The notes beneath the pieces are model-generated. The model searched no databases, had not been told where the DNA came from, and saw only the letters and a list, made by a program, of their open reading frames with translations. A stretch of 51,373 nucleotides of DNA from Actinomycetes bacterium (GTDB lineage Bacteria > Actinomycetota > Acidimicrobiia > Acidimicrobiales > JAKAOS01): positions 1 through 51,373 of the forward strand of contig JAJYPS010000003.1 of assembly GCA_021795215.1 (NCBI GenBank), given 5' to 3'. Shown in pieces: positions 2,302 through 11,865 of the stretch; position 1 is the stretch's first letter, and each line of letters begins with the position of its first letter. The translations under genes and the position numbers were made by a program.

Positions 2302-4008
2302 TCAGGTGGAAGAGCGTAGTTGAACAAGACTGGGGATGGAGGCTCCTGGTTCCTTACACCTGTCGTGACACTCCTTCTCCAATGTGCAGCAGAGAGAGCA
2401 GATGCCGCCTCCGTGGAACGGGCATGCCGCCATGTCGGCGATCTCGTAGGACTCCGCGCACACCCTGCATCCCAACTCGACCTCGGCGACGGTGGGGCCG
2501 TCGGTGGTGGCGTCGGCGAGGGCTGCCTCGGCCATCAGATCCGGCCGAGCGAGGTAGTAGCGGCCCTTGGTGGCCAGCGCGATCAGCGGTGAAGCTACGA
2601 ACGCTATCAACAGCGCAAGAAAGGGAGAGAACGCCTGGGCGAACGGGCCGAACGTGCCGAAGAACGCCGCCACGGAGACAGCCGACGCAATCAGCATCGA
2701 GCCGAAGCCGACCGGGTTGACCGTATGGAGGTGGGCCCGCTTGAACTCGATGTACGGAGGGCTGATCTTCAGCAGTGGCTTGTTGATCACCAGGTCTGCC
2801 ACGACCGCTCCCACCCAGGCGATGGCGACGTTGGAGTAGAAGCCCAGCACGAAGTTGAGGACCCCGAACACGCCGCCCTCCATCAGACCGAGGGCAATGG
2901 CCACGTTGAAGAATATCCACACCACCCTGCCGGGGTGCCAGTGGAGCACCCTGGAGTAGAAGTTGGACCACGACAGCGATCCCGAGTAAGCGTTGGTCAC
3001 GTTGATCTTTATCTGGGACAGCACCACGAACACCGTGGCCGCCGCAAGTGCTCCGACGGGCATGAACGACTTGAAGCCTCCGAGAAGCTGCTCTATGGGC
3101 TCGACCGCTTTGGTGAGCCCGACCTGCGAGGCCACGTAAAAGGCGAGGAATGCTCCCGACAGCTGCTTGACTGCGCCCAGCACGACCCAGCCCGGACCGG
3201 CGGCGATAACCGACAGCCACCACCGCTTTGCGTTGGCATCGGTCTTGGCAGGCATGAACCGCAGATAGTCCACCTGCTCGCCTATCTGGGCGATCAGCGA
3301 GAGGGCCACGCCGGCTCCCAGACCCATCGCTATGAAGTCGAAATGGGATCCGTTCTTGGCTGTACCACCGAAGTGAGTCCACCCAGAGAACGCATGCGGG
3401 CTGGTCACAGCTATGGCCACCAACGGAGCGGCCATCATCACCAACCACAGGGGCTGCGTCCAGACCTGCAGCTTGGACAGCGCCGTCATGCCGTACATCA
3501 CCAGCGGGATCACTATGAGCGACACGATCAGATAGCCCACCGCCACCGGTATGCCGAGCGACATCTGAAGCGCCTGGGCCATGATCGAGCCCTCGAGCGA
3601 GAAGAAGATGAACGTGAAGCTGGCGTAGATCAGCGACGTGATCGTGGAGCCCAGATAGCCGAAGCCCGCACCCCGGGTCAGCAGGTCCATGTCGATCGAG
3701 TAGCGGGCGGCGTAGTAGGCGATGGGGATGCCGGTGAGGAAGATGACCGACGCCGCGAGCAGGATCGCCCACACGGCGCTCGAGAAGCCGTGAGTCACCG
3801 CGATGGAACCGCCGATGGCGTAGTCGGCCAGGTATGCGATGCCGCCGAGCGCCGTGGTCGCCACCACGTACTCGTTCCATTTGCGGTACTTGGCAGGCGC
3901 GTAGCGGAGCGAGTAGTCCTCCATCTTGGCATTGCCGACCAACCCGCCGTAGCGGCGGACCCGCTTCGGACTGCCTTCGGCGACGACGGAAGCCTGTTCC
4001 AGAGTCAT
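2302..4008 (-). CDS. Purine-cytosine-permease-like membrane protein with C-terminal Cys-rich (Zn-finger-like) tail
   Basis: Start MTLEQ at 4008 after an AAGGAG RBS. Motifs EDYSLRYAP, IDMDLLTRGAGFGYLGS, KINVTNAYSGSLSWSN; about 13 TM segments; tail CRVC...CPFH...ICSLCC...CHD.CK. Confidence 0.85.
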   Translation of the reverse strand: MTLEQASVVAEGSPKRVRRYGGLVGNAKMEDYSLRYAPAKYRKWNEYVVATTALGGIAYLADYAIGGSIAVTHGFSSAVWAILLAASVIFLTGIPIAYYAARYSIDMDLLTRGAGFGYLGSTITSLIYASFTFIFFSLEGSIMAQALQMSLGIPVAVGYLIVSLIVIPLVMYGMTALSKLQVWTQPLWLVMMAAPLVAIAVTSPHAFSGWTHFGGTAKNGSHFDFIAMGLGAGVALSLIAQIGEQVDYLRFMPAKTDANAKRWWLSVIAAGPGWVVLGAVKQLSGAFLAFYVASQVGLTKAVEPIEQLLGGFKSFMPVGALAAATVFVVLSQIKINVTNAYSGSLSWSNFYSRVLHWHPGRVVWIFFNVAIALGLMEGGVFGVLNFVLGFYSNVAIAWVGAVVADLVINKPLLKISPPYIEFKRAHLHTVNPVGFGSMLIASAVSVAAFFGTFGPFAQAFSPFLALLIAFVASPLIALATKGRYYLARPDLMAEAALADATTDGPTVAEVELGCRVCAESYEIADMAACPFHGGGICSLCCTLEKECHDRCKEPGASIPSLVQLRSST

Positions 4009-4020
4009 TGCTGGCTCCTT

Positions 4021-4052
4021 TCGGATGGTTGGGCCTTCTCGGATGGTTGGGC
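4021..4052. repeat. 14-bp direct repeat TCGGATGGTTGGGC x2 (18-bp period)
   Basis: Copies at 4021 and 4039, between the fmdA stop and the permease start. Confidence 0.85.
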
Positions 4053-4072
4053 TCTTTCGGCTGCTGGGCAAG

Positions 4073-5320
4073 TCATCTGGCCGTGGCGCAGCTGCCCCGG
4101 TCGGACGCTTCCGGTCCCGCCGTGGAGGGGCGGATGTCGAAGTCGAATATGGCCGTGGGTATGTACAGCGAGCAGCAGGCGTTGGGAATGTCGACCACTC
4201 CGCTGATGCGGCCCTCCACCGGCGCTGCACCCAGGATCAGATAGACCTGCTCCGGAGAGAAACCGAACTTGCTCAGGTAGGCGATCGCATTGAGGCAGGC
4301 CCGCCGATAGGCCAAGGTGGCGTCGAGGTAGTGGTTCGTGTCGCTGTCGTGGTCCACCGAGATGCCGACGAAGGTCAGGAACTCGCTGTAACGGGGCTCC
4401 ACGTTGCCCGGCTGGAAGATCGGGTTCGTGGTCACCCCGTACGTTTCCATTCCGCCCTTTATCAGGTCTATTCCGAGATCTATGAAGCCGCCCATCTCGA
4501 TGGCGCCGCAGAACGTGATCTCGCCGTCGCCTTGACTGAAGTGCAGGTCGCCTCCGGAGAGCTTGGCGCCCGGCACGTACACCGGGTAGTAGACGCGCGA
4601 GCCACGGGTCAGGTTCTTGATGTCGTGGTTGCCGCCGTTCTCACGGGGGGGCACGGTGCGGGCCCCCTCCCGGCCGATCCTGTCGAGGTCCGGCCCGGAC
4701 AGGGTTCCGGCCAGCACTCCGGACGGCTCCGGCGGCAGCGCAAGAGGGGGCACCCGCTCCGGATCGGTCGCCACAAGCGACGCTTCCCGGGCGTTCCAGC
4801 GAGCCAGCATCTCCGGCGAAGGGGCCGTGCCGAACAGTCCGGGATGGGTTATGCCGGTGAAGCGGACACCCGGCAGGTGGCGTGACGTCGCCTGCTGGCC
4901 GTGGAAGTCCCATATGGCCTTGTAGGCGTCGGGAAAATAGTCGGTCAGGAAACCGCCGCCGTTCTCCCTGGCGAAGATGCCGGTGTAGCCCCAGCCCTGT
5001 CCGGGAGCCGGGCCGCTCTCCTGCGGCACCGGTCCGAGGTCCAGGATGTCCACCACCAGCAGGTCTCCTGGCTCCGCACCTTCCACCGACACCGGCCCGC
5101 TCAACATGTGGGCCCTCGTCAGGTCCACGTCCGCCACGTCCCTGGCCGAGTCGTTGTTGCCTATCTGGCCGTCGGTCCACTCACGACACTCGATCCGCAC
5201 CTCGCTGCCCGGTCTCACGTTCGCTGCGGCAGGCACGTCGGGGTGCCACCGGTTGTGGCCCGGCACGGCCTGTTCGGTCATCGACTTGGACTGGTCCACC
5301 GAGAACACCACTTCGGGCAT
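4073..5320 (-). CDS. fmdA: Formamidase (FmdA/AmdA acetamidase/formamidase family)
   Basis: Start MPEVVFSVD; GHNRWHPDVP, ECREWTDGQI, ENGGGFLTDYFP, PPRENGGNHDIK, GDLHFSQGDGEI, DATLAYRRACLNAI. Confidence 0.93.
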   Translation of the reverse strand: MPEVVFSVDQSKSMTEQAVPGHNRWHPDVPAAANVRPGSEVRIECREWTDGQIGNNDSARDVADVDLTRAHMLSGPVSVEGAEPGDLLVVDILDLGPVPQESGPAPGQGWGYTGIFARENGGGFLTDYFPDAYKAIWDFHGQQATSRHLPGVRFTGITHPGLFGTAPSPEMLARWNAREASLVATDPERVPPLALPPEPSGVLAGTLSGPDLDRIGREGARTVPPRENGGNHDIKNLTRGSRVYYPVYVPGAKLSGGDLHFSQGDGEITFCGAIEMGGFIDLGIDLIKGGMETYGVTTNPIFQPGNVEPRYSEFLTFVGISVDHDSDTNHYLDATLAYRRACLNAIAYLSKFGFSPEQVYLILGAAPVEGRISGVVDIPNACCSLYIPTAIFDFDIRPSTAGPEASDRGSCATAR

Positions 5321-5601
5321 CAGGCGCTCCTCCCGGCCAGCGGAGCGGAGCAGCAACTCGCCGAAGCACAGGACGAGGCGCCGCCTTGGCAACGGAGCAC
5401 TACTTCGGGCTCGTCTCGGCACTTCTCCTCCCTCGCCCGGGCCGCAAGGATCGGTGAAGCGGCAGTCGAGAACGACGCCGAGAAGACCCTCCGTGCCGAA
5501 GTGCCGCAGGAGCCGCAGGGCAGCGCTGCAGGCGCGCTGCCCATCGGTAGCGACTCGGTGAACGGCCCGCAGGCCGGGCAGCGGAATGCGTAAGGTGTCA
5601 C
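5320..5601 (-). CDS. fmdB: FmdB-family zinc-ribbon regulatory protein
   Basis: GTG start, TPYAFRCPACG...LPCGSCGTSARRVFS...RDEPEVV; TGATG overlap with the fmdA start. Confidence 0.85.
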   Translation of the reverse strand: MTPYAFRCPACGPFTESLPMGSAPAALPCGSCGTSARRVFSASFSTAASPILAARAREEKCRDEPEVVLRCQGGASSCASASCCSAPLAGRSA

Positions 5602-5608
5602 GTCTCTT

Positions 5609-5648
5609 CTCCCGTGTGTGGCAATGGTCCTCCCGTGTGTGGCAATGG
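5609..5648. repeat. 19-bp direct repeat CTCCCGTGTGTGGCAATGG x2 (21-bp period)
   Basis: Exact copies at 5609 and 5630, immediately upstream of fmdB. Confidence 0.9.
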
Positions 5649-5753
5649 AAGCAACTGCAAAGTGGTTCCGCTCAGGCGTCGACAGCTCTCTGGGTTCCCG
5701 GTGCCGAGCACTCCCCTCTCGTGTCGACCCCGCTCGGGGCGGTGTGCTCGCAT

Positions 5754-5795
5754 CAGGCGATGTCTCTTGGACAGCAGGCAATGTCCCTTGGACAG
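5754..5795. repeat. 21-bp tandem duplication CAGGCRATGTCYCTTGGACAG
   Basis: Copies at 5754 and 5775 with two mismatches. Confidence 0.85.
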
Positions 5796-6218
5796 GTTTT
5801 CCGGCAATTGCAACGCTACTCAGCGTGAGAACAATTATGCACGGCGGTCCTCCATTCCCCCCCGTCTCGGAGCCTCCAACACCCCACTACCGATGCATGA
5901 TCTCGAACACGAGCTGAAGGTTAGATAAGCAAACGGCTCCACATGTTGCCGATATATGTACAGTGCGTTAACTAGATCTCTGACGTCGCCGTGACCGACC
6001 ATCCCGTCGCACTCCGGGCCCACTTGCAACCAGTAGGGCGGTAGAACGACGACGACCGTACTGCTGCCGTCGGTCGCCGGTATCCAATATGACATAGAGG
6101 GCTACAGGCCAATCATGCTGTCTGCGAACCGTCCATCTCTTCTATGACGTGTGGCCCGCACGGGTCGTGCTCTCAGGTCGGGGCCCGAACAGGTCGAGGG
6201 GCCCGAACCGCACTTGCC

Positions 6219-7778
6219 CTAAACAGCTCTGTCTATATCCAAGCCGGACGCGGCGATCAAACGAGGGCGGTCGGAGCGGTTGCCTTCGGAGGCTCTTCGG
6301 TGACGCGCCGCGTAGTACGCAGCTCCGACCAGCAGGCCACCAGACAGGACGATGGGTCCCCAGACAGTCGGGAAAACGACAGGGTAGAACGTGTAATAGA
6401 TGCCGAGCACGGTGGACGCCAGCGATGCGAGCGGCAGAACGACGTGGGTGACCGCTCTCGTCATTCGCCTCTTCCGAGCGAAGGCAGGCAGCACGGCATT
6501 TCCCAGGATGTGCCCGACAAACTCTCCCATGGTCCCGACGAGGATCAACACGAGAAACGCCGTGTCGGGACCGGCCGCCGCGCCGGCTATCACGGCCCCG
6601 AGGGCAGCTACGGCGAACGTCGAGGCGACCGCCACCCGTGGGCTGCCGCTACGGGAGTCCACTCTTGCGACCGGGGCGGGGAGCATCCCACACTCGCCCA
6701 TGGCATAGGCGACTCTGCTCACCACCAAAGTCGAAGCAACGATGGCGCTGGCGATGCTGTTGGCCATGAACACCGGTGCCGGGATCTCTGCGGGCGTACC
6801 CAGGAAGTGCTGGATCACCAGCAGGCCGGGAATGTTCGAGGCGGCGAAGCCGGCCATCTTGCCGGCACCCCAACCGACGGTCATGGCGTAGGACACCAGC
6901 AGGAACACGACCACAACGGCCGAGGTGGACCACAGCAGACCGCGCCTGATGGTCCGGTGGGGCAGCTTGGCCTCGTGACCCAGGTAGACCGTGGCGGTCG
7001 ATCCGGACATCGAGAAGTCGGCCAGCAGCATGCCGATGCCTACTCCTGCAAGCCCGTTGTGGGCGAGGGCAGGATCGAACACGCGGCCCGTGTTGGCGGG
7101 GCCGGCCAGCACCACGATGGCCACCGCGGCACCCACCATGAGAACGAGCTCGATCATCCCAGTCACCAGGCCATAGCGCAGGGACGGGCGCACCCCCCGG
7201 TAGACGAGGCCGATCGGGACGGCCAGGACGGCTACGGGCAACACGACCCACACCCAGGAGGGACCTGTAGAGAGGTGGAACTGGGCCAGCAGCGACTGGA
7301 CCATCACCGAGAAGTAGACCGCACCTGCAGCTGCGAAGGCGGCGTAGTAGATGGCGTAGCAGAGCCCCGTCAGAAACCCGACGAAACCGTTGCTGCCCTG
7401 GGTGACGAAGTAGAACATGCCACCAGAGCTGGCCAGCTTCTTCGAGTACTGCAGCGGCGTATTGACCCACAGCCACACCAGCACGGCACCCAGCAGGTAT
7501 GCGAGCGGCATCGCCCCACGGGCGTAGATCGCCGCAGAGGTCATTACGGCACCCATGCACAGCAGCGGACCGTTGGCGATTATGCCCTGTGCGATCACAT
7601 GTCCTACAGCGGCGCTGTCCCGCTGGAGGCCGCTGCCGGCTACGGCCGAAGGCCCACCGGCGGTCGTCGCATCGCCCAGCAGCGATCCGGTGGACCTTGT
7701 GGCGGTCGACCGATCGCCTCCCACGCCGGCAGCTTGGCTGGTGGAAACCCGCGACGCGCTTCGGAACGTGAATATCAT
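6219..7778 (-). CDS. APC-superfamily amino acid/polyamine-type permease (candidate guanidine importer)
   Basis: About 12 TM segments, LASSGGMFYFVTQG, YLGHEAKLPHRTIRR, SRVAYAMGECGMLP. Same strand and 91 bp downstream of the guanidine hydrolase. Confidence 0.88.
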   Translation of the reverse strand: MIFTFRSASRVSTSQAAGVGGDRSTATRSTGSLLGDATTAGGPSAVAGSGLQRDSAAVGHVIAQGIIANGPLLCMGAVMTSAAIYARGAMPLAYLLGAVLVWLWVNTPLQYSKKLASSGGMFYFVTQGSNGFVGFLTGLCYAIYYAAFAAAGAVYFSVMVQSLLAQFHLSTGPSWVWVVLPVAVLAVPIGLVYRGVRPSLRYGLVTGMIELVLMVGAAVAIVVLAGPANTGRVFDPALAHNGLAGVGIGMLLADFSMSGSTATVYLGHEAKLPHRTIRRGLLWSTSAVVVVFLLVSYAMTVGWGAGKMAGFAASNIPGLLVIQHFLGTPAEIPAPVFMANSIASAIVASTLVVSRVAYAMGECGMLPAPVARVDSRSGSPRVAVASTFAVAALGAVIAGAAAGPDTAFLVLILVGTMGEFVGHILGNAVLPAFARKRRMTRAVTHVVLPLASLASTVLGIYYTFYPVVFPTVWGPIVLSGGLLVGAAYYAARHRRASEGNRSDRPRLIAASGLDIDRAV

Positions 7779-7869
7779 GAGGACACCTCGCTGGTCGATG
7801 AGGAGATGAGCACGACGGAACGTGAGGCTTCGGCTCGGCCCCTGGAGTCGGTCGGAGCGCTGATGGGTC

Positions 7870-9033
7870 TCACAGGGCCGCGTTGCTGCGGGAGGAAGGC
7901 AGGTGTCCCGCTCTCACCAGGCACCCGAGGACGTCGCAGATGACCCTGGTGGCGACCAGGGACGTGATCTCGGCACTGTCGTAAGGTGGCGAGCACTCCA
8001 CCACCTCGATGCCGGCGAGGGGCCGCTCCGACACCAGTTGGACGAACTTGAGCACCTCCCGTGGCAGGAAGCCTCCCGGCTCCGGCCAGCCGGTGCCGGG
8101 GACGAACGCAGCGTCGAGGCAGTCCACGTCGAAGCTGAGCCAGACCGCCTCCGCCCCGCGCCAGGCCACCTCGAGCGCCCTTTCGGCAGCCGCCTCTATG
8201 CCCATCTCGACGCAGTCGGTGACGGTCATGATGGTGGTGCCCCGTTCCCGGCCGACCTTGACACCCGGGCGGGGCGCCTGCCACCCGCCGATCCCTATCT
8301 GCACCAGGTTCTCCGGTGGGACGTTCGGAAGGTCCGTAGCATGGAACCACGGGGTCGTGTGCATCCGCTCGTCGAGGTCCGTCTCCTGTGTGTCGACGTG
8401 CCGGTCGAAATGGATGATGCCCAGGTTGCCCTGGAGTTGCCGGGCGACGCCGCGCACCGTCGGGTACCCGATCGAGTGGTCGCCTCCCAGTACCACAGGG
8501 AAGGCACCGGACCCGTAGACGTGGGCGACGGCTTTGGTGATCTGGTCGAACGTCTTCTCGATGTTGCCAGGGATCGTGAAGATGTCCCCCAGGTCGCCGA
8601 TCGTGATGGACTCTCGCAAGTCGACGCCCAGCTCGAAGCTGTAGGGCCCGTACAGAGCGGAGATCTTGCGGATGCCCTGCGGCCCGAACCTTGTGCCCGG
8701 CCGGTACGTGGTGCCGCCGTCGAACGGGGCACCCAGCACCGCCACGTCGTACTCGCCGCAGCGCCGGACGTCCTCCACGAATGGCGCCTTGAGGAAAGTG
8801 TTGATGCCGGCGAAGTGCGGCAGCTCGCCTCTGGAGAACGTCGGGATGCGCCGGTCCCCGATGGAGTCGGCTGCCGGTAGGCCGAGCTCGAGGCCGCGGG
8901 CCACCTCCCGCTCCCAGGCCGCCGTAGGCAGCTCTGCTTCGGCCGCCACTGCGTAGGCAGCTTCGACTCCGTACCGGCCGTGGCGCAGCGTTCCGGGGTG
9001 GTGTTGGGTCGGTTCGGCGGCGTTGTCGGTCAT
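7870..9033 (-). CDS. gdmH: Guanidine hydrolase (GdmH-type, arginase/ureohydrolase superfamily)
   Basis: Start MTDNAAEP after AGGAGG. Metal ligands GGDHS, DRHVD, SFDVDCLD. GdmH-type features: N-terminal extension with IPTFSRGELPHFAGINTF, GTTYRPG, MHTTPWFH, and Trp in GTGWPEPGG (Thr in canonical agmatinases). Guanidine riboswitch upstream. Confidence 0.85.
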   Translation of the reverse strand: MTDNAAEPTQHHPGTLRHGRYGVEAAYAVAAEAELPTAAWEREVARGLELGLPAADSIGDRRIPTFSRGELPHFAGINTFLKAPFVEDVRRCGEYDVAVLGAPFDGGTTYRPGTRFGPQGIRKISALYGPYSFELGVDLRESITIGDLGDIFTIPGNIEKTFDQITKAVAHVYGSGAFPVVLGGDHSIGYPTVRGVARQLQGNLGIIHFDRHVDTQETDLDERMHTTPWFHATDLPNVPPENLVQIGIGGWQAPRPGVKVGRERGTTIMTVTDCVEMGIEAAAERALEVAWRGAEAVWLSFDVDCLDAAFVPGTGWPEPGGFLPREVLKFVQLVSERPLAGIEVVECSPPYDSAEITSLVATRVICDVLGCLVRAGHLPSSRSNAAL

Positions 9034-9090: not shown

Positions 9091-9196
9091 CTCTCCCGGG
9101 CTTTTGTCCCGCCGTGGAACGCCGCCGAGCGGCGCCTGCACCTCTTGGACCAGTCCCGCCGTCCCGACGGAACGGCGGCGGAACCCTAGATGCGCC
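9091..9196 (-). ncRNA. Guanidine-I (ykkC-yxkD) riboswitch
   Basis: Minus strand: GCAUCUAGGGUUCCG...GACUGGUCCAAGAGGUGC...CACGGCGGGACAAAAGCCCGGGAG, matching the guanidine-I consensus blocks. P1 GCAUCU/AGGUGC can pair. Confidence 0.93.
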
Positions 9197-10811
9197 TCAT
9201 GTGGAGTGAGTCGTGCCCAGTGTGGACCGTTCGTGTTTCGTTCGGTTTTCGCATTTGTGAACGATCCGTTGCAGACAAATCACCGCTGCTGTCCTCCGGT
9301 AGGTGCAACCACGAGTGCCTTGCCGGCGCAACCGATTCGCCAGACTCGTCCAAGAATGCGGCCGTGATGCGGGAGGAACCGCGGGACCGCTCAGCCTGTA
9401 AGGAAACGGCTATCGTGCCGTTCTTGACAGTCGTGCCGTCTCGCAGCAGGCTCGCAAGATCTTCGGGCGACTTACCGAACATCTTCAAATAGCACTTGTA
9501 GTACTCCTTGAAGATCGCCGTGGCCGCCATCGGATCGCACGGGTGCCAGCCCTCATTGACGTCGACGGCTGCAGGGGGATGTCCCATCCCGGCCGTAACA
9601 GTCCATCCCGTAGGGCAGCGTATCAGTAGCGGGGGCTGGTCCCGGTATGCCAGCCGGGTGGTGATCGTGGTGGCCGGCCAGAGCCGGACGGTCCGCCGCC
9701 AGGGAGCCCACCGCAGCTCCACTTGACCGGGGCCGCCACAAGCGGAGTGGAAACGAACCCACACGTCGCCCCGCCAGTAGTGCGGAAAGTGCACGCGGGT
9801 GCGGGATCCCTGAGACACCGTGGGGACGGACTCCAAAGTCGCATATCCGCCAAGTCGGTAGAGCGCGTCCAGCCGGGAGCCCAAGCTGCGCACCTTCGGT
9901 CGGCCACCAGCCTCCACGAGGCTGATCTGGTCGTCGGTCACTGGCAACGTCGGAAGCATTCGGGTCACCCTCTCTGCGACGGTGCGTTGCGACAGGCCTC
10001 GCGCCTCTCTCAGCGCTCTGTAGCTGGAACCGGGCAGAGGCAGGGAAGAGCCGTTGCCGCACTGCCATCCGTCGATTTCGTTCTCCCGAGCGGCCGCCCG
10101 CGGCAGCGACGACGAGGTGCCTCCGTCCGAGCGGCCGAAGGCATCCGGACCGAACGCCTCTTCCAACAGCTCACACCGGCTGCCCAGGAACGACTTCAGT
10201 GCACCGAGCCAATCTCCGCGCTCCCCCAGCAGAAGCTTCGCTTTGGAAATGAACACTTCGAGCGCCGGATCCGTCCTCGAGGCCAGCTTCAGGTCCGAGA
10301 ACCCGTTCATCACCGGCAGACCGAGACCGTCGGGGACCACGCCTTGGCCGAAGTCCACCCAACCGGGCTGCGACAGCTCCACACGGGCTCCCGGATTGAC
10401 CACCGATACCGGCACCGAGACGACGAGGCCGTCGGTGCCACCTCGAACGTTCGCCCTCACGGACAACGGACCCCACCTGATGGAGAGCCTCGCCTCCGTC
10501 GCACCGGCGGGCAGGCGCACCCAGCCCCAGACAGGCCCACCGCCCGAGCCGTAATTGTGCCGCCACACTTCGCGAGCAGGCAGTGCACCGGTGGACGGAA
10601 GGGCGACCGCCATGTCCACGAGTGCGCCCCCCGCCCCGTACGCTGCGTCCAATCTTGCCATCTTGGCCGCATCCGGTCTCCGCAGGCCCGACTCCCAGTT
10701 CGAGACGGCCGGTCTGCCGACGCCCAGCAGCGACGCCACCGTGCTGGCATTCATTCCAACGCACTTTCGCCATCCGCGTAACAGCCAACCCAGTGACAAC
10801 TCTGCGCTCAA
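9186..10811 (-). CDS. Protein with two XRE-type HTH domains, each followed by a similar unknown beta-rich domain (internal duplication)
   Basis: LRGWRKCVGMNASTVASLLGVGRPAVSNWESG...RLDAAYGAGG and YRALREARGLSQRTVAERV...QISLVEAGG...RLDALYRLGG. Downstream paired motifs VWGWVR..SIRWGP / VWVRF..ELRWAP. Confidence 0.8.
   Translation of the reverse strand: MSAELSLGWLLRGWRKCVGMNASTVASLLGVGRPAVSNWESGLRRPDAAKMARLDAAYGAGGALVDMAVALPSTGALPAREVWRHNYGSGGGPVWGWVRLPAGATEARLSIRWGPLSVRANVRGGTDGLVVSVPVSVVNPGARVELSQPGWVDFGQGVVPDGLGLPVMNGFSDLKLASRTDPALEVFISKAKLLLGERGDWLGALKSFLGSRCELLEEAFGPDAFGRSDGGTSSSLPRAAARENEIDGWQCGNGSSLPLPGSSYRALREARGLSQRTVAERVTRMLPTLPVTDDQISLVEAGGRPKVRSLGSRLDALYRLGGYATLESVPTVSQGSRTRVHFPHYWRGDVWVRFHSACGGPGQVELRWAPWRRTVRLWPATTITTRLAYRDQPPLLIRCPTGWTVTAGMGHPPAAVDVNEGWHPCDPMAATAIFKEYYKCYLKMFGKSPEDLASLLRDGTTVKNGTIAVSLQAERSRGSSRITAAFLDESGESVAPARHSWLHLPEDSSGDLSATDRSQMRKPNETRTVHTGHDSLHMRRI
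9235..9261 (-). promoter_or_regulatory. Putative GlnR-like box upstream of the guanidine riboswitch
   Basis: Minus strand TTCAC-n6-GAAAA-n6-GAAAC (11-bp period); an imperfect match to the actinobacterial GTNAC-n6-GAAAC consensus. Confidence 0.4.
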
Positions 10812-10950
10812 CGCAAGTCATCCTTTCCGGCCGCTACACCGCTGGTGTGGCACCCTGAACTTCCCCGTCCCAGGTATAGGACACCGTGTCCGGCTGCGTC
10901 AACACGAGCTCGCCACTTTTTACGCTCGTACCCCGTACAGTGGGGACCCC

Positions 10951-11865
10951 ATGGGGACAGAGCCTTCGGAGGGACGGGCTTCGGAGGGACAGGCTTCGGA
11001 GGGACAGGCTTCGGAAGTGGAGACGTCGACGGGCCCGACCACGGTGAGACGGTCGGAAGCGGAGTTCCGCCGTCACGTGCTGAACACGGCTCAGGAGATG
11101 GTCGACGAGCTCGGAGGCCTCAAGGTCACGGTGGACGATCTCTCCTTCGAGAAGGTGATCGAGCGCTCCCAGGTGTCTCGCAGCACGGCCTACCGCTACT
11201 GGCCGTCCCTTGAGCAGTTCCACGACGACGTGCTGCTGGAGCTGGCGGGGAGAACCTGGAACGGCACCGCAGCTTTCGATCCGGAGACCATCTCCATGGT
11301 CACGGAACTGGTCGGAAGCAACATCGCCAAACTGGTGACCGCCGAGGGACGGAGAGGCCTCTTCCGTGAGGGCGTTCGGATCGGCGTGGCCCGCAACTTC
11401 GCTGCGGTCTGCCGTTCCGCCGAGTGGCGGACGTACGTTGCGCTGACGGCCACCCTGCTGTCCTATCCGAAGGACTCGGAGGCGCACTGCCGCACCAGCG
11501 CCGCCCTGCGCAGGTCGGAGTCCAGGTTCCTCGACTACATGACGGAGTTCTATCAGGACATGGCGATCGTCCTCGGCTTCCGCGCCCGCCATCCCGACGG
11601 ACTGGAGCTACTGGCGGGAGCCGGGGCGGCGGTGCTCGAGGGGCTCGCCCTTCGCCAGATCCTGACGCCCGACTTGATCGGCCGGGTGCTGACGGTGGAA
11701 GGTCCAGATGGCGCCGAAGAGTGGGGTCTACCGGCCCTCTGCTTCCTCGCGGTTGCCGACTCCCTCGTAGAGCCGCTGCCGGACTACGACCCCACCAACG
11801 CGCTTGCCGAGTACTTCAACCGCGTGTCGAGACGTCGGCTTACGCCTTCCGAACGACTTTCGTGA
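10951..11865 (+). CDS. TetR/AcrR-like transcriptional regulator
   Basis: Probable start MGTEPSEG; HTH region LNTAQEMV...LSFEKVIERSQVSRSTAYRYWPS; helical C-terminal domain. Confidence 0.75.
   Translation: MGTEPSEGRASEGQASEGQASEVETSTGPTTVRRSEAEFRRHVLNTAQEMVDELGGLKVTVDDLSFEKVIERSQVSRSTAYRYWPSLEQFHDDVLLELAGRTWNGTAAFDPETISMVTELVGSNIAKLVTAEGRRGLFREGVRIGVARNFAAVCRSAEWRTYVALTATLLSYPKDSEAHCRTSAALRRSESRFLDYMTEFYQDMAIVLGFRARHPDGLELLAGAGAAVLEGLALRQILTPDLIGRVLTVEGPDGAEEWGLPALCFLAVADSLVEPLPDYDPTNALAEYFNRVSRRRLTPSERLS
10964..11015. repeat. 15-bp in-frame tandem repeat CTTCGGAGGGACRGG x3.5
   Basis: Encodes SEG(R/Q)A repeats in the regulator N-terminus. Confidence 0.9.

Follow-up and report, generated by a model that had tools for sequence, protein, structure and literature searches.

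One reading frame in the window, the whole 51,373-nt stretch of DNA from an Actinomycetes bacterium analyzed here, appears to encode a protein with two XRE-type helix-turn-helix (HTH) heads, each followed by a Trp-rich beta region. What kind of protein this is, and what the repeated architecture is for, is the question raised by this locus. The original prediction described a tandem duplication and quoted its motifs, all of which were present: RLDAAYGAGG and RLDALYRLGG in the two HTHs, and VWGWVR..SIRWGP..GWVDFGQG and VWVRF..ELRWAP..GWTVTAGMG in the two beta regions. The features are listed in Table 1. The database gene call begins at the TTG at 10799 and gives a protein of 537 aa.

Table 1. 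Features of the reading frame and its upstream region (positions in the window)
Feature	Residues	Position	Strand	Basis or remark
Whole ORF		9186..10811	-	541 codons, TTG start; stop codon 9186-9188
HTH1, canonical XRE HTH	5-70	10602..10799	-	ends RLDAAYGAGG; Pfam HTH_31 56.6 bits, E 3e-15
Beta domain 1 (beta1), Trp-rich	76-176	10284..10586	-	invariant motif PGWVDFGxGxxP
Three-helix segment after beta1	182-225	10137..10268	-	AlphaFold2; poorly conserved, mean pairwise identity 0.17
Inter-unit linker, disordered	229-254	10050..10127	-	pLDDT <50; variable, gapped in family alignment
HTH2, diverged XRE HTH	261-317	9861..10031	-	ends RLDALYRLGG; HTH_31 alone 23.8 bits, E 5.6e-5
Beta domain 2 (beta2)	326-424	9540..9836	-	homologous to beta1 by profile comparison, conserved less; strands pLDDT >90
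Two-helix segment after beta2	427-458	9438..9533	-	AlphaFold2; identity 0.21
C-terminal tail, disordered	461-541	9189..9431	-	pLDDT 28-39
Candidate promoter TTGACG-18-TATACC		10873..10902	-	read by eye
Perfect 6-1-6 palindrome GGACACGGTGTCC		10879-10891		promoter spacer; palindrome scan; candidate operator
Second palindrome ACACCagcGGTGT		10836-10848		palindrome scan; candidate operator

A tandem repeat of HTH and beta domain

The 541-aa protein consists of two units, each an XRE HTH with a ~100-aa Trp-rich beta domain, and helices follow each unit. The AlphaFold2 model of the whole protein (pLDDT 79.5, pTM 0.75) showed the order HTH, beta domain, three helices, disordered linker, HTH, beta domain, two helices and disordered tail; the model was compact and confident, reaching this pTM despite ~100 disordered residues. 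A Pfam search of the whole protein found HTH_31/HTH_3 twice. Searches of the full-length protein against NCBIfam, PHROGs and PADLOC, of the family profile against PDB sequences and of the protein against a viral fold library returned HTH matches only.

To compare the two halves, single-sequence BLASTP was carried out, which gave a borderline match (E 0.012 over 130 columns). The repeat was solid at the profile level: when the 28-member family alignment was split into units, hhalign matched unit 1 to unit 2 with a probability of 96.5% (E 9e-10, 146 columns), and beta1 matched beta2 after the HTHs were removed (E 1.2e-4 over 71 columns). We conclude that the tandem duplication is genuine and conserved across the family and, from the profile comparison, that units 1 and 2 are homologous. 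The helical segments after the beta domains showed no detectable relationship between the two units (E 0.95), indicating that the repeated unit is HTH plus beta domain, ~170 aa, rather than the full ~240 aa originally proposed; the HTH and beta parts of that proposal held, but the helical part did not.

HTH1 passed the Pfam gathering cut-offs of both HTH_31 (27 bits) and HTH_3 (39.7 bits, cut-off 23), and HTH_31 matched all 28 family members examined. It was modeled as five or six helices with pLDDT >90, superposed on phage XRE HTH models with ~1 A rmsd and contained the invariant residues W39 and E40. HTH2 scored alone fell under the 27-bit HTH_31 cut-off. Its turn between helix 2 and helix 3 was longer by ~7 residues, visible as a gap when hhalign aligned it with HTH1, and its helix 3 began with an acidic stretch (VTDDQI), with two Asp residues there in 20 of the 28 members. 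The lengthened turn and the Asp-Asp pair are atypical for a DNA-reading head. Family conservation was nevertheless equal for HTH1 (0.40) and HTH2 (0.40), which indicates that selection acts on both heads, and R268, S274, E300, L314 and D315 of HTH2 were invariant.

The C-terminal tail was found in the window copy only, and its relatives stop near residue 455-460 in the family alignment. The coding signal of the tail was weak, with GC3 down to 0.53 in the last 30 codons and a weak frame signal at 9250-9399. A guanidine-I riboswitch aptamer (Rfam RF00442) at 9091-9200 covers the final codons and the stop codon of the ORF.

The unnamed beta domain and its likeness to known systems

As originally predicted, the second domain of the unit matched no named sequence family in Pfam or NCBIfam. 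The beta region was without any Pfam match at E<=10. DUF5753 was absent from the window protein at E<=1 and E<=10 and from the 28 members at E<=0.1, with NCBIfam matches at the HTH level only, and no cupin was detected in either unit at E<=10 or in the 28 members at E<=0.1. These searches ruled out DUF5753 along with other named partner domains. Membership in Cupin_2 (PF07883) was ruled out with hhalign: the profiles of beta1 and beta2 matched a 30-sequence Cupin_2 alignment with a probability of 0.1-0.5%, compared with 99.4% for the positive control, cupin against cupin.

Residue conservation was counted over 29 genomic members. In beta1, W83, W95, W97, R99, G128, G150-G155, G157 and P160 were invariant, and in beta2, P343, W346, G410 and W422. 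Neither domain contained a conserved His, Glu, Gln or Cys, all His/Glu/Gln columns being below 80%, and the only polar invariant residues of beta1 were R99 and D153. Modeled alone with AlphaFold2, beta1 had ~8 strands and a pLDDT of 89.5. Foldseek of this model found no significant match (best E 0.023), and no cupin was among the top 50 fold matches. The best matches were the Anabaena sensory rhodopsin transducer 2II7 and CBM6 (TM 0.43-0.50, ~100 columns), which, at E of at least 0.02 (not significant) and 10-17% identity, represent a general fold likeness only.

Foldseek of the whole model against the PDB placed HEPD (6b9r) at the top (E 4e-7, probability 0.98), followed by MPnS (6b9s) and PhpD (3gbf), with E values to 8e-6 for these three structures and to 1e-5 for the HEPD/MPnS matches as a group, and then by HppE, bicupin seed globulins and the XRE-cupin structure 1Y9Q at E ~1e-3. 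The top matches had a TM of 0.10-0.16 and an rmsd >20 A, so module order alone matches, and the modeled protein may be likened to HEPD/MPnS and to XRE-cupin regulators in architecture only. HEPD, MPnS and HppE are non-haem-iron phosphonate oxygenases whose iron is held by a 2-His-1-Glu/Gln site within a true cupin; HEPD and MPnS are [HTH-like + cupin] x2 enzymes, and HppE is a single-unit enzyme. To our knowledge, HEPD and MPnS are the sole solved architecture with two [HTH-like helical domain + beta barrel] modules per chain, and we know of no DNA binding by their helical domains. The window protein is predicted by AlphaFold2 to share the tandem modules and their order. Unlike the three enzymes, however, its family lacks conserved metal ligands and a cupin sequence signal, bears a strong XRE signature in HTH1 and, as judged from flanking genes and the window neighbors, is not located in a phosphonate biosynthetic cluster; the whole model also aligns with them at a low TM (0.12). 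A 2009 paper on the HEPD structure is said to have found metal bound by the first barrel only, which echoes the stronger conservation of beta1 in the window family.

Among the XRE-cupin regulators are PuuR, PauR, PsdR and ErfA, and structure 1Y9Q is from Vibrio cholerae; their small all-beta domain keeps the two heads together. They repress locally, binding palindromes as dimers, and metabolite sensing through the beta domain has been proposed (PMC7901475). Like them, the window family has an N-terminal XRE HTH directly before a small all-beta domain (1Y9Q match, E 1.2e-3). Whereas they are single ~180-aa units that dimerize between chains and act on neighboring genes, the window family fuses two diverged units per chain and has no conserved neighbor, and its beta domain is not Cupin_2 by sequence and retrieves no cupins when fold-searched alone. 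Wolbachia Wmk (PMC6736233) carries two XRE-type heads on one polypeptide. Two XRE heads in a single chain are shared by the window family, Wmk and two-headed phage CI-type repressors, but the HTHs of the latter two are back-to-back, with no duplicated beta domain between or after the heads. The window family also differs from the DUF5753-type XRE partners (WhiJ/Scr1-like actinobacterial regulators) in having no DUF5753 after the HTH. No paper describing the architecture was found in the literature searched. At the fold level, HEPD/MPnS, HppE and 1Y9Q provide a precedent.

Distribution and genomic surroundings of the family

The two-unit layout was kept in ~240 protein clusters (50% identity; E<1e-10), and nearly all relatives were two-unit proteins of 430-490 aa. 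The carriers were mostly Acidimicrobiales MAGs; Actinoplanes, Micromonospora, Rugosimonospora, Nocardioides and an Amycolatopsis plasmid were also among them, and Actinoplanes sp. CA-131856, Micromonospora sp. CPCC 205558 and Nocardioides sp. LHG3406-4 are cultured relatives. Carriage was patchy, with the gene present in 7 of 301 same-order genomes, 2 of 301 genomes of the phylum and none of the two same-family genomes sampled. This is a real, uncharacterized, patchily distributed actinobacterial family, whose members at present bear the annotation "helix-turn-helix transcriptional regulator" and nothing more. Six short hits (P0131, P0134, P0163 and P0171-P0173) were examined as potential single-unit ancestors; each appears to be a fragment, a frameshifted copy or a product whose start was mis-called, and none was a credible single-unit relative.

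The gene is surrounded in the window by a permease, an arginase-family enzyme, a TetR-like gene, an SDR and an RpiR regulator. The TetR-like gene had been proposed as the partner in a regulatory module. By tblastn, neither it nor four other window neighbors matched in 33 related loci, and when 92 flanking genes were tallied by Pfam family, none of the families occurred in more than 4; no phosphonate-related family was among the 25 commonest. All-against-all clustering and the Pfam tally revealed clade-level synteny only (RNase J, amidohydrolase, phosphoesterase and SDR, up to 4 members each). The family has no conserved neighbor gene by these three approaches, and the partner module was rejected.

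Candidate operators and rival explanations

Scanning the surroundings of the gene for consensus promoters and terminators found nothing; the candidate promoter and palindromes of the window copy are those of Table 1. Close relatives have in common a ~20-nt element, GACCGGGAA-N2-3-GTGAAC, located 23-105 nt ahead of the start codon. It was detected in 7 copies and then in 3 of 3 further loci examined, together with a GTGAAG variant, and GTGAAC was enriched (P about 2e-5). The element is asymmetric overall; in both copies at one locus (L018), it forms a 6-2-6 palindrome with compensating changes. It was absent from the window copy (best PWM score -0.5). One reading of these sequences is that the element is a family-wide operator, but it resembles a Shine-Dalgarno sequence together with the GTG start codon of a very small ORF upstream of the gene and hence may not be an operator.

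We propose, with a probability of roughly 60%, that the protein is a cytoplasmic XRE-family transcription regulator built as a single-chain intramolecular pseudo-dimer. An ancestral unit of XRE HTH and small beta-sandwich would have been duplicated in tandem, and the two beta domains and the helices that follow them would pack into one compact core, which would replace the dimerization between chains on which ordinary XRE regulators, the XRE-cupin proteins included, rely. A single-chain pseudo-dimer, as originally predicted, is the natural reading of the compact, confident model; we infer from its pTM only how units 1 and 2 pack together and how the two heads are placed. The core would present two non-identical heads, the canonical HTH1 and HTH2 with its lengthened turn and acidic start of the recognition helix, and an asymmetric two-part operator would therefore be read. 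If HTH2 is structural, the protein may instead bind as a dimer of pseudo-dimers. DNA binding and autoregulation are putative, as is any ligand. The likeliest targets would be its own promoter and, because there is no conserved neighbor, trans targets elsewhere. For an effector or interface site, the best candidate is the beta1 face, on which R99 and the GWVDFGxGxxP motif are invariant.

If true, this would extend the XRE one-component regulators by a beta domain that has no name and by a tandem architecture that is obligate. It would also provide a natural single-chain repressor dimer able to read non-palindromic operators, and would give the unusual [HTH-like + barrel] x2 scaffold of the phosphonate oxygenases a counterpart among regulators. 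It has no bearing on any long-standing open question; with ~240 clusters, a domain model and one characterized member would improve annotation across Actinomycetota. A bolder version, which we regard as quite unlikely, is a new class of two-headed single-chain XRE repressors in which each of the two diverged heads would read one half of an asymmetric operator, the halves being GACCGGGAA and GTGAAC, which relatives carry roughly one helical turn apart, and the duplicated Trp-rich beta-sandwich would be an undescribed sensor or assembly domain. Such a class would be a DNA-binding counterpart to a scaffold, [HTH + barrel] x2, that has so far been seen in the HEPD/MPnS enzymes only, and would suggest that these enzymes arose from duplicated regulators.

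Among the competing explanations, an enzyme of the HEPD/MPnS/HppE kind, with structural HTH-like parts and no DNA binding, would account for the top whole-model PDB matches and for the shared [helical + beta] x2 order. The TM and rmsd of those matches argue against it, as do the full-strength XRE signature of HTH1, the lack of Cupin_2 profile similarity and of cupins among the top 50 fold matches of beta1, and the flanking genes, in which no Pfam family exceeded 4 of 92 and none of the 25 commonest was phosphonate-related. The absence of conserved His, Glu, Gln and Cys, with only R99 and D153 as polar invariants of beta1, leaves no 2-His-1-carboxylate site; we rejected this highly improbable explanation because conserved metal ligands are absent. 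It is less improbable, but still unlikely, that HTH1 alone reads DNA, with unit 2 degenerate, structural or sensory, and that the protein binds as a homodimer to palindromes such as GGACACGGTGTCC. The sub-threshold score of HTH2 (23.8 vs 27 bits), its enlarged turn and its Asp-Asp pair are consistent with one reading head, and so are the perfect palindrome in the -35/-10 spacer of the candidate promoter and the palindromic element of the L018 copies. On the other hand, the equal conservation of HTH2 and its invariant residues argue for a specific function retained by this head, and the element shared by the relatives is asymmetric overall.

The proposed pseudo-dimer could also belong to mobile elements, acting in plasmids and integrative elements as an accessory regulator of the immunity- or maintenance-repressor type; the window copy would then be an orphan remnant. 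This role, which we consider very unlikely, would fit the patchy distribution, the existence of pseudogenized copies and several contexts: the copy on Amycolatopsis plasmid pAS20800 sits between two integrase genes, one copy adjoins an excisionase-like HTH_17 gene and a phage-type integrase, and others lie beside DUF3631, a type I restriction-modification system or contractile-sheath genes. Against it, there were no matches in 50,697 phage records and one in 72,556 plasmids, and several Acidimicrobiales clades carry the gene on the chromosome in a stable setting, such as immediately behind RNase J. The genes around the window copy are ordinary metabolic ones; no tRNA gene lies closer than ~28 kb, and the neighbors scanned include no integrase. 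The role concerns function rather than mechanism and is therefore compatible with a pseudo-dimer.

Tandem units in the window protein

The regulator ORF (541 codons, TTG start) is a single open frame, for which a public gene call in the identical frame gives 537 aa from the TTG at 10799. Its GC3 is 0.7-0.9 up to residue ~450 and drops to 0.53 in the last 30 codons. All motifs quoted in the original prediction were found in its translation. Pfam detected two stretches, HTH_31/HTH_3 only, with 56.6 bits for the first HTH (HTH1) and, when unit 2 was scanned by itself, 23.8 bits (E 5.6e-5), slightly below the 27-bit cut-off. The stretch of the first beta domain (beta1) plus helices had no Pfam match even at E<=10, and searches of the whole protein against NCBIfam, PHROGs and PADLOC returned nothing beyond the HTH.

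The protein had been described as a tandem repeat of ~240-aa units. BLASTP of the two halves against each other was borderline for the single sequence (E 0.012 over 130 columns), whereas the repeat was clear in family profiles: unit 1 and unit 2 of the 28-member family alignment matched in hhalign with a probability of 96.5% (E 9e-10) over 146 columns, spanning the HTH through the end of the beta domain. With the HTHs removed, beta1 still aligned with the second beta domain (beta2; E 1.2e-4, 71 columns). The helical stretches following beta1 and beta2 did not align (E 0.95), indicating that the duplicated unit is HTH plus beta domain, ~170 aa. The duplication was thus upheld, but not the extent first given to it.

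An AlphaFold2 model of the protein was built on the family alignment (pLDDT 79.5, pTM 0.75), and its segments are listed in the table. HTH1 and HTH2 are equally conserved (mean pairwise identity 0.40 each), although the turn from helix 2 to helix 3 is ~7 residues longer in HTH2 and HTH2 helix 3 opens V-T-D-D-Q-I, with Asp-Asp in 20/28 close relatives. Identity is 0.38 in beta1, 0.31 in beta2 and 0.17-0.21 in the helices. Among the 29 genomic members, the invariant residues are W83, W95, W97, R99, G128, G150-W-V-D-F-G155, G157 and P160 in beta1 and P343, W346, G410 and W422 in beta2, and neither domain contains a conserved His, Glu, Gln or Cys.

Features of the window and predicted segments of the window protein
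Feature	Position	Strand	Remark
Permease gene	6219-7778	-	APC permease
Arginase-family gene	7870-9033	-	
Guanidine-I riboswitch aptamer	9091-9200	-	RF00442, 82.8 bits
Regulator ORF	9186-10811	-	
Candidate palindrome	10848-10836		ACACCagcGGTGT
Candidate promoter	10902-10873	coding	TTGACG-18-TATACC, read by eye
Tandem 15-nt repeats	10949-10993	+	CTTCGGAGGGACGGG and variants
TetR-like gene	~10966-11865		upstream of and divergent from regulator
642-aa ORF	2302-4230	-	good GC3, no Pfam family at E<=1e-5
102-aa ORF	4617-4925	+	good GC3, no Pfam family at E<=1e-5
HTH1	residues 7-70		AlphaFold2, ORF numbering
beta1	residues 80-176		AlphaFold2
Three helices	residues 182-225		AlphaFold2
Disordered linker	residues 229-251		AlphaFold2
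HTH2	residues 261-317		AlphaFold2
beta2	residues 326-424		AlphaFold2
Two helices	residues 427-458		AlphaFold2
Disordered tail	residues 461-541		AlphaFold2

Identity of the beta domain and the pseudo-dimer reading

The best-supported reading is that the window protein is an XRE-family transcription regulator and an intramolecular pseudo-dimer. Two homologous HTH-beta units would be fused in a single chain, the beta domains and helices would make one core presenting two non-identical heads, and the pseudo-dimer would act in the manner of an XRE-cupin dimer. Regulators of the XRE-cupin type are reported to act as local repressors that contain a sensing barrel and to bind palindromes as dimers (PMC7901475). 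By sequence, however, the window protein does not fall within that family. Neither Cupin_2 nor DUF5753 matched any of the 28 members, and beta1, beta2 and the whole units scored hhalign probabilities of 0.1-0.5% against a Cupin_2 alignment of 30 loci from same-class genomes; as a positive control, one half of the cupin set against the other gave 99.4% (E 2e-21). Together with the Pfam result, this bears out the view that the beta domain has no named sequence family.

In the PDB, the full model matched the phosphonate oxygenases HEPD (6b9r, E 4e-7), MPnS (6b9s, E ~1e-6) and HppE (E ~1e-3), as well as PhpD (3gbf, E ~1e-5), the XRE-cupin regulator 1Y9Q (E 1.2e-3) and bicupin seed globulins (E ~1e-3), with TM-scores of 0.1-0.3 and rmsd of 11-27 A, the likeness residing in the order helical, barrel, helical, barrel. 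HEPD and MPnS parallel the window protein in architecture, but it is without their catalytic residues, and a HEPD/HppE-type iron site is excluded by the lack of conserved His, Glu, Gln or Cys. The family profile against all PDB sequences retrieved HTH proteins only, HppE appearing at E 0.13 through its HTH. Beta1 modelled separately (pLDDT 89.5, pTM 0.81) gave no significant fold match; the best were the sensory rhodopsin transducer of Anabaena and sandwiches of the CBM6 type (E at least 0.02, TM 0.43-0.50), and no cupin was among the best 50. A viral fold library added nothing except HTH matches.

Family distribution and gene neighbourhood

A word-indexed search found 31 clusters. Exhaustive phmmer against 1.84 billion representatives matched 367 of them at E<=1e-3, falling to 240 at E<=1e-10 and to 140 at E<=1e-30, nearly all of 430-490 aa and end-to-end. 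Short hits that could pass for single-unit proteins appear to be fragments, to stem from a frameshifted contig of low coverage, or to be products starting or stopping in the linker, and no credible single-unit relative was found. The interest of this sizeable family is in its unnamed domain and its obligate tandem layout. Acidimicrobiales MAGs predominate among its genomic loci; other carriers are Actinoplanes, Micromonospora, two Rugosimonospora species, Nocardioides, one Streptosporangiaceae MAG and the Amycolatopsis plasmid pAS20800, whose single integrase-flanked copy is annotated "helix-turn-helix transcriptional regulator". Occurrence is patchy (2/301 genomes sampled phylum-wide, 7/301 sampled in the same order); neither of two same-family genomes sampled carries the gene, and the source genome (2.6 Mb, 152 contigs) has one copy only. 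One MAG holds an intact copy and, ~3.4 kb further upstream, a second one (L018/L036 2259-3660; also G461:C51:11482-12829). This second copy is split into three frames and so looks pseudogenised, yet its upstream element is retained. The Actinoplanes copy has an in-frame stop at 6940-6942 (locus L009), and the copy in genome G555 has one TAA.

The TetR-like gene matched TetR_N weakly (E 0.008) and TetR structures at E 1e-3, with good GC3. The tandem repeats encode a SEGQA-type pentapeptide repeat at its N-terminus, and the gene may start at 10966 or later. When five window neighbours were compared by tblastn with 33 related loci, none matched, and no Pfam family occurred more than four times among 92 flanking genes. 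Since no window neighbour recurs near relatives, the proposed pairing with the TetR-like gene is unsupported. Recurrent flanking families reflect synteny inside close clades, such as RNase J, which immediately precedes the gene in four loci. In one Acidimicrobiales/Actinomycetota clade (L020, L023, L027 and L032, ~4000-8800), the gene occupies a fixed chromosomal slot, immediately after RNase J and before an amidohydrolase-type gene. In contrast, several other copies lie in mobile or variable contexts, with an integrase and an excisionase-like HTH_17, DUF3631, a type I restriction-modification system or contractile-sheath genes, or on a plasmid.

Upstream elements and the C-terminal tail

The spacer of the candidate promoter contains a perfect palindrome, GGACACGGTGTCC, as a candidate operator; a consensus promoter scan upstream of the window gene called no site. 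Relatives share an element of ~20 nt, GACCGGGAA-N2-3-(T)GTGAAC, lying 23-105 nt 5' of the start codon on the coding strand; the window copy lacks this element. Seven independent copies showed it first, among them the two paralogues of the MAG at L018, in which the element is a 6-2-6 palindrome and the changes compensate one another. It was then seen in 3/3 further loci, with a GTGAAG variant in one more. Its bearers are close relatives from several orders (L003, L009, L012, L018 with two copies, L020, L024, L037, L077, L078 and L079). GTGAAC occurred 243 times in 786 kb, nine of them in 4.7 kb of upstream windows (binomial P 1.8e-5, partly biased by inclusion of the discovery loci). Since its GTG begins a very short upstream ORF (3-30 codons) ending at or near the main start, the element could be an operator or a translational (coupling) feature.

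The tail is missing in all aligned relatives, which stop near residue 455-460. The riboswitch aptamer overlaps the final 15 nt of the regulator ORF and thus contains its stop codon and last codons, and it is followed on the same strand by the arginase-family and permease genes. In our reading, the tail is a stretch under weak constraint or none, in which the frame reads through into the next operon's leader. Any promoter of the arginase/permease operon must sit within this unconserved tail.
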